In this document: in pieces, positions 14,248 to 20,656 of the stretch
How positions within the stretch are numbered: the first letter of the stretch is position 1
Layout of the letters: every line of letters begins with the position of its first letter
DNA from: Escherichia phage A73
Direction: 5' to 3' (one strand)
Sequence record: OP778609
DNA: 64,000 nucleotides
Translations under genes and position numbers: made by a program
The notes under the pieces: model-generated
What the model was told of the DNA's origin: nothing
What the model saw: only the letters and a program-made list of their open reading frames with translations
Database searches by the model: none

Positions 14248-14688
14248 ATGTCTCGTGGCTATTTATTGTTAAGCCGTCGCAATCAGCTTATTCCTCGTAT
14301 CGAGGTTGAAGGTCGCAGACGTGCTTATAAAAAGGTTGATCTGGATGACCCGTTTGATAACGGTGGTCTGGAGATTGAATATACACCATTCACGGCTGTT
14401 GAATGTGTCATTCAACCAATCAGAGGCAAAGCGCTTCGTGACCAGAACAACCAACTGACTACTGCTGGTGAGGAAGATTATGATTCCTACACTGTGTATT
14501 CAGAAACTGTATTGTATCGTGCACAAGAAGGAACGGATAAACTTTCTGATCAATTGTGGCTTCCCAATTCTGTTGGTGAGAATAGTTGGTTTACAGTAAT
14601 GAAAGCTGACCGTTACCCAAGTGCAGGCAACATGAGATATCGTTACTATCTGATCGCTGTACCTGTTGGAACAGAGGGTGGATTATAA
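14248..14688 (+). CDS. Hypothetical neck protein
   Basis: 146-aa ORF with AGGAGG RBS; no motif. Confidence 0.4.
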   Translation: MSRGYLLLSRRNQLIPRIEVEGRRRAYKKVDLDDPFDNGGLEIEYTPFTAVECVIQPIRGKALRDQNNQLTTAGEEDYDSYTVYSETVLYRAQEGTDKLSDQLWLPNSVGENSWFTVMKADRYPSAGNMRYRYYLIAVPVGTEGGL

Positions 14689-15347
14689 TGGATCAATTGC
14701 CTAATGAGTTTACAAACTCCGACGAGATTATGGGCAATCTCACAAGGGTTATCGGTCGTCTCTTGAAAGACGTAACCACTTATAAGGTGGTTGAAGCTGG
14801 TGAAACAATCCCTAAAGTTGAGGGACCATTCATCCTCGTAGACCTCTCAGATTTAAGCCCTCTCGATTGGGAAACAAATCAGATTGTTGAGAATGGTATT
14901 ACACACACTGTTCACAACTACACTGCAACATACACACTCACCGCATATCGTGGAAAACCTCACTGGGCATTGACTCGTTTTCATCAGGCATTGAGCCTTG
15001 CATGGATAAGAGATAAATACTTCCCTGTCGGATCACCTTATGCTTACTCGTCCACTTCTTCTATTGCAAGATTAAGAATTCCTCTTAATGAGCAATATTA
15101 TGAAAACAGGGCAAGGGTACTGATTACCTTTAACGTTACGTTCGTTGAAAGTGACTTTGGTCAGTTTGAAAATATCGAGAGCATCATTATCGACACCAGT
15201 GTTTCAGATCCTTCTGGAAACAAGATCGAAAATGAAGCCATTGTAGATATCAACGTCAAACCAGGTGGTGATGGTCCTAGTATCCCGCCAGAACCGGAGA
15301 TTCCTTTCACTTACATCGATACTATCGTTACTGTAAACGAGAAGTAA
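14688..15347 (+). CDS. Hypothetical tail-completion/terminator protein
   Basis: 219-aa ORF, start overlaps upstream stop (TAATG); lies just before the sheath gene. Confidence 0.35.
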   Translation: MDQLPNEFTNSDEIMGNLTRVIGRLLKDVTTYKVVEAGETIPKVEGPFILVDLSDLSPLDWETNQIVENGITHTVHNYTATYTLTAYRGKPHWALTRFHQALSLAWIRDKYFPVGSPYAYSSTSSIARLRIPLNEQYYENRARVLITFNVTFVESDFGQFENIESIIIDTSVSDPSGNKIENEAIVDINVKPGGDGPSIPPEPEIPFTYIDTIVTVNEK

Positions 15348-15459: not shown

Positions 15460-16875
15460 ATGGCTTATGAAGATAAGGTAGTTGACGTCGAGGTAACGCT
15501 TGGCACTCAACCTATTGATACCGTAGGGTTTGAAACCCCAATGTTCTTAGCAGTACACAATAATTTCCCTGAACGTCTCCGTCTGTACGGATCTGTGGAA
15601 AGTCTGGTTGGTGATGGATTTGCAGTTGGGTCCGCAGCATATCAATTCGCATCCAATGCATTTGGTGGGTCTTTTGCCCCACAACTGGTAGCAATTGGTC
15701 GTATGTCTATGTCTGGTTCTCGAATCGACTTCACAGGCACTACCAATACCGAGCGTGTTGTGGTAAACATTACTATCAATAAGGTGGTAAAGGCAATAAC
15801 TATCACGATCAACCCTGGAAACACCCCTGGTCAGATCGCAACTGCTCTTGCAGAAGGTATTAACAATGATGTAGATTTGGCTGGTCGCGTTACTGCAACT
15901 GTTGAAGGCAGTACAGTCGTAGTTGTGCAATCCGCAGAGATTATCAGTGTAGGTAAAGGCGAAGGTAGCTACAAGATTGTAAACACCTCTGTTGAAACTG
16001 TTGCAACTGTTCTTCCGCAGGTACTTGCTGAAAACCACAACTGGTACTTCCTGTCTCACGAACAACGTTCTGATGCAGATATCGTTGCAGCGGCTGAATT
16101 TGCACAAGCTAATTACAAACTGCACGTATATAACTCCAGTGACAGCGATGCTCTGGCAGCAGCTAACCAAAGCGCTTCCGTGTTTGATACACTGAAAGCT
16201 CTGGGTTACAACTCTCTGGGTACTTACGACAAAGAAGCGGATGTAGAATTCACCGAAGGTTCTGTTATCGGCGCAATGGCTGCTAACGATCCTTCTTACG
16301 GTGACTCTATTCACCTGAAGACAATGCCTGGCATGAAGCCTTCTACGATTTCCGAAACTCAGCGTAGCAACGCTTGGGGACGTAACGCAAACATCTATCG
16401 TGCAATGTACGGCACTAACAGCTACATCGAAGGGCGTACCTCCAGCGGTCAGTATGTTGACGTTATTCGTTTCTCCCATTGGCTGAAATTCCGCATGGAA
16501 GAATCTGTATTCGGATACATGAAGCGTCGTTCTGATCAAGGCCAGTCCATGAAGATGAGTGATGAAGACCTTCCGGTTCTGCGATCTATCCTGTTTAATA
16601 ACCCAATCAACATCGGTATTCGTAACGGTGGCATTCTGACTGGTTATGACACAGTGAACCGTGTTAGCTATGATCCGATTATCACCATTCCTCGCCGTGC
16701 TGAAATCCCAAGTAATGACTTAGCTAACCGTATTCTGCGTGATGTTAAAGTTGAAGTGGTTTACAACAACTCCCTGCACTACGTTAAAATTCGCGCTGCT
16801 GTTGTTCTGGATCGTCCGCAAAACACGACCCAAAGCACTCAGACTCCTTTCACTAACTCTACTGTAGGGGTGTAA
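15460..16875 (+). CDS. Tail sheath protein (putative)
   Basis: 471-aa ORF with AGAGGA RBS, immediately upstream of a 160-aa tube-like gene and the chaperone/tape-measure pair. Confidence 0.55.
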   Translation: MAYEDKVVDVEVTLGTQPIDTVGFETPMFLAVHNNFPERLRLYGSVESLVGDGFAVGSAAYQFASNAFGGSFAPQLVAIGRMSMSGSRIDFTGTTNTERVVVNITINKVVKAITITINPGNTPGQIATALAEGINNDVDLAGRVTATVEGSTVVVVQSAEIISVGKGEGSYKIVNTSVETVATVLPQVLAENHNWYFLSHEQRSDADIVAAAEFAQANYKLHVYNSSDSDALAAANQSASVFDTLKALGYNSLGTYDKEADVEFTEGSVIGAMAANDPSYGDSIHLKTMPGMKPSTISETQRSNAWGRNANIYRAMYGTNSYIEGRTSSGQYVDVIRFSHWLKFRMEESVFGYMKRRSDQGQSMKMSDEDLPVLRSILFNNPINIGIRNGGILTGYDTVNRVSYDPIITIPRRAEIPSNDLANRILRDVKVEVVYNNSLHYVKIRAAVVLDRPQNTTQSTQTPFTNSTVGV

Positions 16876-16878
16876 TAG

Positions 16879-17361
16879 ATGGCACTGAATCCTAAGTTAA
16901 TTAGTCTCCAGGCATACGACCCAGCGAAGGTTCTGATCTTCATCGGCGGTCAACGTGTTTCTGGATTTGCCGCTGATACGAAAGTTGTTGTTTCTCGTAA
17001 CAACGATAACATTACCCCGCTGTCTGGTGTTGATGGTGAAGTAAGTTCGGCTATCGTTCGCGACAACTCTGGTGTAGTAACTATCTCCTTGCAGAATACT
17101 TCTGTATGGAACGGTTATCTTTCCCAATGGCAGTTGCAAGCCCGTCTGACCGGACTTGTTTACTTCCCAATCCAGATTGAAGGTTCTCAGGGTCTGTCCT
17201 TGAACACCTTTGGTTGGATTCAACGTCAACCAGACCTGACCTATGGATCTGAAGTAGGGCAGATGGACTGGGAAATCGGCGTTGTCGATGCACAACTGAG
17301 TGCTGACCAGATTCAGGGTGTTGCTGCCGGAATCGGTGGAATCCTCGGTCTGGATCAATAA
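16879..17361 (+). CDS. Tail tube protein (putative)
   Basis: 160-aa ORF starting 4 nt after the sheath stop; position between sheath and chaperone. Confidence 0.5.
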   Translation: MALNPKLISLQAYDPAKVLIFIGGQRVSGFAADTKVVVSRNNDNITPLSGVDGEVSSAIVRDNSGVVTISLQNTSVWNGYLSQWQLQARLTGLVYFPIQIEGSQGLSLNTFGWIQRQPDLTYGSEVGQMDWEIGVVDAQLSADQIQGVAAGIGGILGLDQ

Positions 17362-17441
17362 TTACGTGAGCCTCAAGGATGAGGCCCTTCTCACGCAATG
17401 GATGATATTCATATTAACAAAGTGGACACAGGAGTGTAAAC

Positions 17442-17912
17442 GTGCAAGGTTTTAAATTTAAAAAGACCACAGAGATTACTCTTTGCGGCGGTAAGCGATT
17501 CACAATCTATCATTGGTCACCTACTCAAGTTATCCGTAATATGCCTAAGATTGGTAAACTGGTAGCTGTTCCTTTGGGCACGATGGCAGGTTCTGCTATT
17601 TCCGGTGGACAAGATTTTCAAGACGCTGTACCAACAGCAATTCTCTACATCTTAGATCGCATAGATGAAGGTGGTCTGGAAATTATTAATCTTCTGTTGG
17701 AAGGTGTAGAAGTAGACAACATGGGTGGCCCTATTGATATAGACGAAGTGTTCGATGGTCACGTAGAAGATTTGTTTAAACTGCTGGCAGAAATTATACA
17801 GGTGAACTACGGCTGTTTTTTCGGCAAGAGCGGTTTCGGGACAATCGAAAGTCTCCTTCAGAAGTTCGGTCTGGTTCGCAAGGTGGAGCAACTGGATCAG
17901 ACGGAAGCCTGA
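17442..17912 (+). CDS. Tail assembly chaperone (short form)
   Basis: 156-aa ORF (GTG start) between tube and tape measure; contains slippery heptamer T_TTT_TTC at 17816-17822. Confidence 0.55.
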   Translation: MQGFKFKKTTEITLCGGKRFTIYHWSPTQVIRNMPKIGKLVAVPLGTMAGSAISGGQDFQDAVPTAILYILDRIDEGGLEIINLLLEGVEVDNMGGPIDIDEVFDGHVEDLFKLLAEIIQVNYGCFFGKSGFGTIESLLQKFGLVRKVEQLDQTEA

Positions 17913-18175
17913 GGCCGCTGAGTACAGTGGAAAGGGCCTTGGAGTATTGTAGAAAAAACTCTAGTCTGAAATGGTATGACTATCTCTATTTCCGTGTCAT
18001 GGAGAAATTCAAGGGAGTTAACGAACTTTCTATCGAAAGTGGAGACATGGAAGACCTTCTTAAGAAAAATGAATATATCGATATTCAAGAATATTTGGAA
18101 GGGGTTCAAGACAAAGAGAAGGAATACGAACGCCAGCGAATGGAACAAGAGGCCCAGTTGAAACGGAGAAAGTAA
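17442..18175 (+). CDS. Tail assembly chaperone, -1 frameshift extension product (predicted)
   Basis: A -1 shift at 17816-17822 fuses residues 1-127 to the 17822-18175 frame (...NYGCFF/RQERFRDN...ERALEYC...), giving ~244 aa. Confidence 0.45.
17816..17822 (+). promoter_or_regulatory. Candidate -1 programmed ribosomal frameshift site
   Basis: T TTT TTC fits X_XXY_YYZ in the chaperone frame; the -1 frame is open from 17780 to 18175. Confidence 0.5.
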
Positions 18176-18183
18176 ATAAATAG

Positions 18184-18220
18184 GGCTGGAGTCGAAAGAC
18201 TCTGGCCTTTATTTTTATTA
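18184..18220 (+). terminator. Rho-independent terminator
   Basis: GGCTGGAGTCgaaaGACTCTGGCC: 10-bp stem with two G-U pairs and GAAA loop, then tttatttttatt. Confidence 0.6.
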
Positions 18221-18232
18221 TGAGGAGTCAAA

Positions 18233-20656
18233 ATGGCTGTTGAAGTAATTGCAACAACAAAGAACCGAGTCATATTTGAAACTGACAAAGGTTCCTATCG
18301 AAAAGCTCGTGAGGAGATCCGAAAACTCTCCAACGAATGGAAAAAGGCTTCAACAGAGGCTACCGCTGCCGGAAAGAATTCTCCTGCTGAGGCTTATAAA
18401 CAATCCGCTCGTGAAATGAGACTAGTCAGTAAACGTTTGGAAGAGACTCGTAAACGAGAAGAGAAGAAAGCAACTGATTACCGTATTGCTCTGGCAAAGA
18501 AAGAGGCCAAGGCAAAGGAAGCAATCCAGAAGGTTTCTGCTGCAAGAATACGACAACAGGTTAAAAGCCTTACGGCTGCATCGCCTGGTTCTGCTGAGAT
18601 GAGAAAGTTTTATCAGGAACAGGAAAAAGCTGCTAGAGCGGCTGCAAGATCTGCAAACCGTACAGCGACACCATTGCCGCCTTTCAACATTCAACGTGTA
18701 GAAGCTGCAAACCAATTATTATCCCGTGGCAACAGAGAACCAGGGTCAGGGATTGTTGGAGATCCTAATAGTCGATTCAACCCTGAGTTAATTGCTGCAC
18801 AAAACAGAGCGATGCAACGTAGTTCTCGTATCAAGGAGAGGATGCAGAAGCAACAAACTCAAGAACAGGAACGTGAACGTGTCCGCGCTGCTCGCGCTGC
18901 TGCCCGTATTGATGATGTTACAGCACAACAACGTATTCGTCTATCCTCCAGATATGGTCGTGGTTATGCAGGCGCTTTGGGTCGTGATTCAGAGGGTCGT
19001 GGGATTGAAGATCTTAATAGACAATTCCGTGCGGGAACATTATCATCTGGACAATATCGACAAAGTGTTCAGGCACTCGAAAGACAATTTCGCGCCGCAC
19101 AATCAAGTGCTGGGTCTTTCTCTTCTACGTTGAGAGATATTCGTTCTAACTTGGTAAGTGCTACGGCTGCATATGGTGTTTTCTCCGCAGGTGCATCAAT
19201 CACTCGTCAAGGTCAATTCTTCGAAGGTATTAATGCAACCTCCTTGCTGATCTCTGATTCAGCAGAAGAGGCTGGTCAGCGTGTTAAGTTTGTTCGTGAC
19301 GAAGCATACCGTTTAGGTTTGGATCTGAAAACTGCATCGCAGGGATTTACCCAGTTAGCGATCTCTGCTGATGGTGTTATTAGTAAATCTCAAACAGACG
19401 AATTATTTAGTGCATTTTCTGAATATTCCACCGCACTTCAGGTCGATCCTGTAAGATATCAGCGTGGCATTACAGCAATTCAACAGATCCTTGGTAAAGG
19501 TCAAGTAATGGCTGAAGAACTTAAAGGTCAGTTGGCTGAAGCTATCCCAGGTTCTTTGCAAGTCTTCTTGAAAGCAACTCAAGAAGCATTTGGTGACACC
19601 TCTATCGACATTGCAAAATTACTAAAGTTGATGGAAGATGGTGAATTGAAAGCATCAAAGATCATCCCATTAGTTGGTAAATACTATGCAGAAGCTGCCA
19701 ATAAAGGTGGTGCGCTGGATAAAGCTTTGGAAAGTAACCGTGTTGCTTACCAACGTTTAACTCAGACCTTTGCAGAGTTTCAAAACAAAATATTCCAAGG
19801 TGGCTTTGGTGAACAACTGACAAGGGTGTTCAATAACTTAGCTACCATCCTATCGAGCAATGGTAACGTTGCAAGCACCATCGGTAGATTCTTCGGTAAC
19901 GTAATTGAAGGATTTACAGACATGGTTCTTGAAATACATGATAACCTTGTCCTTTTGGATCGTGTGGTGTCTTATTACTTCAAGAAAATAGGTGTTGAAG
20001 GTGATACTCTTCGTCAAGTGTTTGATTGGGGTTCTTATCTCCTTGGTATCGGATTGTTCCTCGGCGGTCTAACTAAAGTGTTTAATATCCTAGCTAAGAT
20101 TGCAGGATTAAAAGGTGCACTTAAGGAGATTCGTGGAACCCTTGGTGGAGATTTAGCTACGGGTGGAAAAACCACAACTGGTGCAAACACTACAGCCTCT
20201 GGTGGCGCAACTACCCCAGGTAAGACAAGTGTAGCTGGAAGATTCAGTCAACTTGGTAAGCTTGGTAAGCTTTTTGGCCTTGGTACGCTTTATTCAGCAG
20301 GGTCGGAAATCAATGACCGCTTTATCCAAAGTGGAGAGAGCCGATTGGCTGGAGCAGGGCTTGACGCAACAGCTTTCCAGCAGCAATATGGTGTAACTCC
20401 ACAACCTGTCGGGTTAACTGATGTGTTCAGAGAGTTGTTTGGTGGCTCTCGTGACATAACTGTAGATCCTAACACTATCTCGACTCCATCTGGTATTCGC
20501 CCTAGCGGATTTCCTCTGGAAACTCCAGCAGCACCACCTGAAGGTAAGATCACCGTTGAGATCAAGAGTGGAGAGATTCGTCAATATATCCGTGCAATTG
20601 TGGATGAAGAGAACGGATTCAATATCAACCTGCTCACTCAGGGTGGTAACCAATAA
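18233..20656 (+). CDS. Tail tape measure protein
   Basis: 807 aa; charged Arg/Glu/Ala/Gln-rich helical N-terminal third, hydrophobic segments mid-protein, Gly-rich region; directly after the frameshifted chaperone. Confidence 0.85.
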   Translation: MAVEVIATTKNRVIFETDKGSYRKAREEIRKLSNEWKKASTEATAAGKNSPAEAYKQSAREMRLVSKRLEETRKREEKKATDYRIALAKKEAKAKEAIQKVSAARIRQQVKSLTAASPGSAEMRKFYQEQEKAARAAARSANRTATPLPPFNIQRVEAANQLLSRGNREPGSGIVGDPNSRFNPELIAAQNRAMQRSSRIKERMQKQQTQEQERERVRAARAAARIDDVTAQQRIRLSSRYGRGYAGALGRDSEGRGIEDLNRQFRAGTLSSGQYRQSVQALERQFRAAQSSAGSFSSTLRDIRSNLVSATAAYGVFSAGASITRQGQFFEGINATSLLISDSAEEAGQRVKFVRDEAYRLGLDLKTASQGFTQLAISADGVISKSQTDELFSAFSEYSTALQVDPVRYQRGITAIQQILGKGQVMAEELKGQLAEAIPGSLQVFLKATQEAFGDTSIDIAKLLKLMEDGELKASKIIPLVGKYYAEAANKGGALDKALESNRVAYQRLTQTFAEFQNKIFQGGFGEQLTRVFNNLATILSSNGNVASTIGRFFGNVIEGFTDMVLEIHDNLVLLDRVVSYYFKKIGVEGDTLRQVFDWGSYLLGIGLFLGGLTKVFNILAKIAGLKGALKEIRGTLGGDLATGGKTTTGANTTASGGATTPGKTSVAGRFSQLGKLGKLFGLGTLYSAGSEINDRFIQSGESRLAGAGLDATAFQQQYGVTPQPVGLTDVFRELFGGSRDITVDPNTISTPSGIRPSGFPLETPAAPPEGKITVEIKSGEIRQYIRAIVDEENGFNINLLTQGGNQ

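Follow-up and report, generated by a model that had tools for sequence, protein, structure and literature searches.

The closest described counterparts of the locus analyzed here are the gpG and gpGT proteins of phage lambda and, more broadly, the tail-chaperone frameshift conserved among dsDNA phages with long tails (Levin 1993; Xu, Hendrix & Duda 2004, summarised in PMC5009743). In lambda, the N-terminal part binds the tape measure protein (TMP), the C-terminal part binds the tube protein, and the two products are made in a ratio of about 30:1; P2-like phages frameshift at 2 to 3 times the lambda level (PMC5009743). In December 2025, a study of Pseudomonas phage Adele (Pakpunavirus) added a GTTTTT motif that does not vary at the 3' end of the gene for the N-terminal tail assembly chaperone (TAC-N); 56 Vandenendeviridae alleles and 231 Andersonviridae genomes combine it with a -1 frame free of interruptions (PMC12846349). 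These two families are stated to be related to the Vequintavirinae, and their -1 frame of >200 bp runs through a region routinely annotated as a "hypothetical protein" or as intergenic (PMC12846349).

A joined CDS is already held in GenBank for one site of this kind, in the Felix O1-like phage Moogle (Ounavirinae, 88 kb). U-rich heptamers are also found in P2 E/E+E', which has T_TTT_TTG, and in T7 10A/10B, which has G_GTT_TTC. These two share with our locus a tRNA-Phe in the A or P site; P2 is also a contractile-tail chaperone case, whereas the T7 site lies in a capsid gene instead. Vladimirov, Gautam and Davidson reportedly described, in 2022, T4-like tail assembly chaperones that use a non-frameshift mechanism. 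We argue from the canonical heptamers described below that this T4-like alternative probably does not apply here.

Set beside these systems, a 64,000-nucleotide stretch of DNA from a Vequintavirinae myophage (the window) very likely carries, in its tail assembly chaperone gene, a programmed -1 ribosomal frameshift of the lambda G/GT type, as judged from comparison of homologous sequences. Over positions 16879-18300 the identity is 100% with Escherichia phage W70 (OP778610.1, Vequintavirinae, 137 kb), 92-99% with four further coliphages, and ~70% with the CR3/phiTE group; we refer to the allele as W70. A neck/tail terminator gene (14688-15347, PF23961) and a sheath gene (15460-16875; phrog_205, 4.5e-106) are followed on the plus strand by the tail tube gene (16879-17361; PF11681, 2e-09; phrog_280, 1e-38), the TAC-N (G-like) chaperone ORF (17442-17912), and the TMP gene (18233-20656; PF20155 TMP_3, 5.1e-14; phrog_5255, 3e-291). 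The chaperone ORF begins at a GTG, 7 nt after a plus-strand Shine-Dalgarno (SD) sequence, AGGAG, read from the sequence at 17430-17434, and encodes 156 aa in the 0 frame before its stop at TGA 17910-17912. The initial annotation had proposed a chaperone ORF between tube and tape measure, and the Pfam and PHROG matches of this ORF and of its flanking genes bear that out. The ORF scores 78.6 bits against Pfam PF21822 Phage_TAC_15 (cut-off 22; E=7.9e-22; profile 1-127 of 127) and also matches phrog_3840, "tail assembly chaperone" (2e-63), and a protein database search returned 45 homologous proteins of 153-161 aa. The AF2 model of TAC-N (pLDDT 72.7) had no significant Foldseek match in the PDB, the best being at E=0.83, with the HK97 chaperone 2ob9 at rank 10 (E=4.3, TM 0.24-0.32); a PDB sequence profile search with TAC-N gave no match.

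Within this ORF, the slippery heptamer T_TTT_TTC occupies 17816-17822 on the plus strand, and the codons that hold it, TGT (17814-17816), TTT (17817-17819), and TTC (17820-17822), confirm the X_XXY_YYZ register first assigned to it. Ten stops interrupt the -1 frame from 17453 to 17777, and no other follows until TAA 18173-18175, in agreement with the open stretch of 17780-18175 reported earlier, and the +1 frame of the chaperone locus is closed. The heptamer sits within the frame overlap (17780-17912), and the -1-frame extension, or T-like part (17822-18175, plus strand), comprises 117 codons plus TAA and reaches 263 nt past the 0-frame stop. A fusion of ~244 aa had been projected; recomputed as 127 + 117 residues, it comes to 244 aa, with the junction ...NYGCFF|RQERFR.... 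The predicted tryptic peptide across this junction is LLAEIIQVNYGCFFR, and its TAC-N counterpart is LLAEIIQVNYGCFFGK.

To gauge the rarity of this arrangement, in-register X_XXY_YYZ heptamers were sought in 64 ORFs of the window that do not overlap one another (17,620 codons). The scan found 55, of which 17816-17822 alone reads T_TTT_TTC and alone leads into a long -1 frame. That frame stays open for 117 codons; the median was 5, and the next longest was also 5. Given a -1-frame stop density of 0.102 per codon in the window, the probability of 117 open codons is ~3e-6.

Comparison with homologues covered 33 loci, representing 28 distinct alleles, from GenBank and IMG/VR. The 20 IMG/VR loci were partly seeded by a peptide pattern containing FF and form a biased sample; the 14 GenBank loci, obtained through tblastn, DNA similarity, or accession, are unbiased and agree with the seeded ones. 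T_TTT_TTC was present in register inside the overlap in 27/27 distinct alleles with an FF site, at TAC-N identities down to about 25-29%. These alleles include W70, CR3, phiTE, rV5, SSE121, PVP-SE1-like phages, and Klebsiella Mydovirus, as well as Acinetobacter ABPH49, phi92-like Eryne, Phapecoctavirus tuntematon, and Aeromonas 2L372X. A canonical heptamer in the overlap combined with a long -1 frame was seen in all 28 distinct alleles, plus Moogle and the Rheinheimera phage Barba18A. Among homologues with a complete contig, the +1 frame is short, and the -1 frame continues for 224-296 nt after the 0-frame stop; within the set of 28 alleles the span is 254-296 nt. In each case the -1 frame is already open when the heptamer is reached, and it ends immediately ahead of the tape-measure gene or of an inserted gene.

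The strongest evidence came from a control on codon usage at synonymous sites. Across 24 alleles with >=41% identity, 25 invariant residues have degenerate codons, and 22 of these columns are mixed, including two other Phe columns (TTT:TTC = 14:10 and 4:20). The three single-codon columns are the two heptamer Phe residues (TTT 24/24, TTC 24/24) and a Gly, GGT, in the overlap. When distant alleles were added, the heptamer TTT and TTC were kept in 27/27. Directly ahead of the heptamer, the codon differs between alleles (Cys TGT, Pro CCT, Ser AGT), but its third base is T in 27/27. The frozen Gly codon, at 17832-17834 inside the overlap, lies where the -1 frame reads the conserved R-F-R, and GGTTTCG (17832-17838) is nearly invariant across alleles.

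More distant relatives have exchanged the slip site and kept the layout around it. Vibrio phage 193E37-1 (28.6% identity) has A_AAT_TTT at the equivalent place and lacks T_TTT_TTC. In Barba18A, which was located through its T-part and not through TAC-N, LTS replaces FF, and G_GGA_AAG stands in register on S-G-K codons a few codons downstream, within a 154-nt overlap whose -1 frame is open 224 nt past the stop. Both halves of the Barba18A protein are homologous to those of W70 (TAC-N, BLASTP E=3e-18 with YGC aligned; T-domain, hhalign 99.3%, E=3.7e-20). Exchange of the slip site with retention of the architecture is hard to explain unless, as these sequences suggest, ribosomal slippage is itself the selected function.

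Moogle offers a second outside comparison. Its TAC-N shows homology to that of W70 over 129 aa (blastp E=1.3e-10) and carries the orthologous AGT-TTT-TTC in ...NFGSFF..., in register, within an 85-nt overlap; the -1 frame there continues for 236 nt after the stop. Its T-part has only a short local motif in common with that of W70, and we do not claim homology between the two T-parts (hhalign probability 18%). With GTTTTT at 17815-17820, a -1 frame of >200 bp, and this homology to Moogle, the W70 locus has the features that define the GTTTTT-motif TAC frameshift, although the TAC analysis in PMC12846349 concerns Vandenendeviridae and Andersonviridae, not Vequintavirinae or Stephanstirmvirinae, and W70 is likened to them by motif and frame layout.

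If the T-like part is reached by frameshifting, it should be translated from the heptamer onward; a different account holds that there are simply two genes. The downstream ORF would then start at ATG 17999 (58 aa) or GTG 17927 (82 aa), possibly by termination-reinitiation after TGA 17910-17912, and the heptamer would be incidental. GenBank follows the first version, with W70_121, a "hypothetical protein" of 58 aa at 17999-18175 (plus strand) starting at ATG 17999, and separate small ORFs are likewise annotated in W70, CR3, phiTE, rV5, and other records. PHROGs also holds the fragment as families of its own, and W70 has a GTG at -1-frame codon 35 with GAGG ~12 nt upstream. Yet the aligned -1-frame products fall into three segments that do not begin at ATG 17999: R/H-x-x-R-F-R, a variable-length Gly/Ser/Asp-rich linker, and a conserved block. 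The block has the pattern LSTVERALEYCRKNSSLKWYDYL...FKG...DM..LLK.NEY.D, reads LSTVERALEYCRKNSSLKWYDYLYFRVMEKFKG...SIESGDMEDLLKKNEYIDIQEYL in W70, and starts ~25 codons 5' of the annotated ATG. In W70 coordinates, the dual-coding overlap after the heptamer (17822-17912, plus strand) holds the TAC-N C terminus in the 0 frame and RQERFR with the Gly/Ser/Asp-rich linker in the -1 frame; the linker spans ~17822-17917 and the conserved domain ~17918-18172.

Counting pairwise substitutions at -1-frame codon positions 1/2/3 separates these regions by their coding constraint. The overlap has 5115/4689/3952 substitutions, a pattern in which the 0 frame dominates. Between the 0-frame stop and the annotated ATG the counts are 3251/3462/6374, and this third-position excess is a clear -1-frame coding signature in a region that W70_121 leaves out; after the ATG they are 8919/7088/13271. 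The sequence preceding ATG 17999, tatctctatttccgtgtc, contains no SD. Candidate start codons of the -1 ORF vary between clades, the -1 frame of Klebsiella-clade alleles offers no ATG, GTG, or TTG until codon 83, a point already past the conserved block, and the records of some relatives annotate no ORF in the T-part region. Because the Klebsiella clade has no usable start, ATG 17999 has no SD, and the starts vary between clades, independent initiation cannot be the general route to the T-domain. Two separate genes would also leave unexplained both the frozen heptamer codons and a -1 frame that always opens upstream of the heptamer, and we consider that account very improbable. W70_121 is best read as a C-terminal fragment of the frameshift product, not as a separate gene.

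The fusion could in principle be produced before translation. An RNA polymerase that added an extra U in the T6 run would yield a fraction of mRNAs encoding the fusion in one frame; the run is conserved, one inserted U gives the same -1-frame product, and both bacteria and phages are known to make fusions through slippage (PMC5009743). Polymerase slippage is nonetheless disfavored because A_AAT_TTT and G_GGA_AAG contain no run of more than 4, yet each is a canonical ribosomal heptamer in the 0-frame register. Six residues also make a short run for efficient slippage by RNA polymerase. In 27/27 alleles neither the register nor the terminal C varies, which likewise speaks against a transcriptional origin, and we regard this route as having little chance of being correct. 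A chance arrangement or sequencing artefact of no biological role is effectively refuted already by the probability of the open frame within the window and by the retention of the arrangement in hundreds of independently sequenced genomes.

The G/GT-type reading given in the initial annotation is thus supported by heptamer conservation and turnover, the open -1 frame, the -1 coding signature, and the lineages that lack a start. For the process itself, we infer that most ribosomes would read 17442-17912 and halt at the TGA, yielding the 156-aa TAC-N. A minority would slip back one base while tRNA-Phe sits on UUU in the P site and on UUC in the A site of U_UUU_UUC; the slipped tRNAs would re-pair to UUU_UUU, and reading would resume at CGG (17822) and continue as CGG CAA GAG... 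to TAA 18173-18175. The predicted long product, the 244-aa TAC-NC, would consist of the chaperone core, the Gly/Ser-rich linker, and the conserved ~85-aa domain. By analogy with lambda, the shared N-terminal part may coat or bind TMP while the C-terminal domain recruits the tube protein. With the N-terminal part on TMP and the C-terminal domain recruiting tube protein, the slip frequency would fix the ratio of TAC-N to TAC-NC; on the lambda model both proteins would be needed to assemble the tail, and neither would be expected in the virion. The rV5 proteomics paper makes no mention of the chaperone frameshift locus.

W70 shares with lambda G/GT the overlapping ORFs between tube and tape-measure genes, the -1 extension, and the apparent lack of strong 3' structure; by expectation, they also share a short main product and a long minor one. 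It differs from lambda in its heptamer, T_TTT_TTC instead of G_GGA_AAG, in its contractile tail, in a T-part without a Pfam match, and in a possible SD-like 5' element. No Pfam family, those of the lambda gpT type included, matched 17822-18172 at E<=0.01, and the only PHROGs matched by the T-part were phrog_10409 and phrog_8811, both of "unknown function." When the 244-aa fusion was used to query a database of 5.8 billion proteins, the only matches were TAC-N proteins of 153-161 aa, none of them a fused record, and no fused protein was found among the sampled GenBank annotations of the W70 lineage. Gene callers are unable to produce fusions in any case, which tempers the absence of fused records.

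The consequences for annotation are broader than a single phage. The T-domain is carried by 357 GenBank phage records, and in every record sampled it is a stand-alone "hypothetical protein" or is unannotated; in the papers and GenBank records sampled, we found no annotation of a frameshift for Vequintavirinae, Stephanstirmvirinae, Plateaulakevirus, or Barbavirus. Recognizing the frameshift would supply the correct 244-aa product, remove a spurious small gene, and assign a function. Such repair would span rV5-like, phi92-like, phAPEC8-like, CR3-like, Aeromonas, Vibrio, and Rheinheimera myophages, several of which appear in phage therapy work. The mechanism is ordinary, adding one more lineage to a process known since 1993 and catalogued since 2004, and the modest extras beyond annotation are the heptamer turnover and a possible SD-like stimulator.

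A stimulatory RNA structure just downstream of the heptamer had been suggested as a check on the frameshift, and here folding z-scores and RNAalifold found none that was significant or conserved. The 90 nt at 17823-17912 fold at -26.5 kcal/mol, compared with -25.5 ± 3.1 for shuffled sequences (z = -0.32), and the 181 nt at 17780-17960 give z = -0.85 against shuffled controls. RNAalifold on 16 diverse alleles returned only a helix of -4.6 kcal/mol that includes the heptamer itself and has no covariation. Given these z-scores and the weak helix, we rejected a 3' RNA stimulator. Lambda G/GT shifts at low efficiency, a few percent, without a downstream structure. A missing 3' structure is not a real refutation because, according to Sharma et al. 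(2014), a -1 frameshift signal has no mandatory component other than the heptamer (PMC4066793). The same source names two classes as the more frameshift-prone in E. coli, heptamers with UUN or AAN A-site codons and those with homogeneous X and Z (all pyrimidine), and U_UUU_UUC belongs to both (PMC4066793). Phage tRNA-Phe was rejected as a modulator, as the window contains no tRNA genes.

On the 5' side, an internal SD-like AGGTGA at 17800-17805 (plus strand), 10 nt before the heptamer, is a candidate stimulator of the dnaX type. Its duplex with the 16S 3' end is predicted at -8.4 kcal/mol, in the 5th percentile of window positions. E. coli dnaX has its internal SD ~10 nt 5' of the shift site (PMC5009743), and W70 resembles it in this spacing; unlike dnaX, W70 has no strong 3' stem-loop, so that only the upstream half of the dnaX pairing (SD-like sequence ~10 nt 5' and stable 3' stem-loop) was found, and the SD-like element is missing in several clades. 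A comparable or stronger element (top 5%) occurs in 10/18 representative alleles, the Vibrio phage included, and none is found in the CR3-like, Klebsiella, and Aeromonas clades. We therefore treat the element as a plausible lineage-variable enhancer suggested by the sequence, and not as an established part of the signal. That the frameshift is tuned by this element and not by 3' RNA structure, with lineages lacking it making a different chaperone ratio, is a tentative idea that we think somewhat unlikely to hold. If it did, the at least three heptamer types (T_TTT_TTC, A_AAT_TTT, and G_GGA_AAG) and the SD variants would provide a natural series on evolution of the G:GT ratio. These variants lie 9-13 nt upstream of the heptamer: AGGTGA in W70, GGAGGT in rV5-type phages, and GGAGG in the Vibrio phage, where it accompanies a different heptamer.

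GGTTTCG lies on the plus strand 9 nt 3' of the proposed slippery heptamer, T_TTT_TTC, at positions 17832 to 17838 of the window, and its nucleotides are nearly invariant across alleles of the chaperone locus, down to approximately 30% identity. The Gly codon within it, GGT, is frozen. Dual coding is probably the explanation for the invariance, with the motif being read as G-F-G in the 0 frame and as R-F-R in the -1 frame. Alternatively, GGTTTCG may contribute to frameshifting, either as a spacer or by acting in the entry channel.

In phi92-like and phAPEC8-like phages, the heptamer is part of the sequence CCCTTTTTTC, found at 1854 to 1863 of the collected Eryne locus (L026) and 1866 to 1875 of the tuntematon locus (L027). 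Here the heptamers C_CCT_TTT and T_TTT_TTC overlap, both of them in register, which makes the slippery stretch of these phages longer than that of W70. ARAGORN found no tRNA or tmRNA genes in the 64-kb window (1 to 64000), so any phage-encoded tRNA-Phe with a possible influence on slippage would be located elsewhere in the 137-kb genome.

Between the chaperone and tape measure genes, a strong hairpin resembling an intrinsic terminator occupies 18182 to 18219 on the plus strand (12 bp, 6 GC, and a GAAA loop, followed by TATTTTTATT). It begins 7 nt past the -1-frame stop and ends just ahead of the tape measure start at 18233, and the rV5 and phiTE records have a terminator annotated at the equivalent position. 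Transcription between the two genes may be attenuated by this hairpin. This otherwise tight junction evidently tolerates insertions, because extra genes separate the -1-frame extension from the tape measure gene in Rheinheimera phage Barba18A (an HNH endonuclease gene on the minus strand, opposite to the chaperone; L033, 2228 to 2866) and in phiTE (two small open reading frames; L004, 2821 to 3921).

Related records also revealed annotation issues. In UPEC06, the annotated chaperone begins at an internal start and is 123 aa long (L002, 2162 to 2533), despite a reading frame with 98.7% identity to the 156-aa W70 product, and a 31-aa open reading frame annotated over the end of the UPEC06 tube gene is spurious. 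Approximately 20 unannotated GenBank records labeled "Campylobacter phage" (128 to 143 kb), such as MG065666, MG065672, MG065661, and MG065690 (tblastn matches H59, H60, H108, and H122), score the same at the chaperone locus as rV5-type phages of E. coli and share 41.4% identity with the W70 chaperone, the same figure as rV5; their host labels look doubtful.
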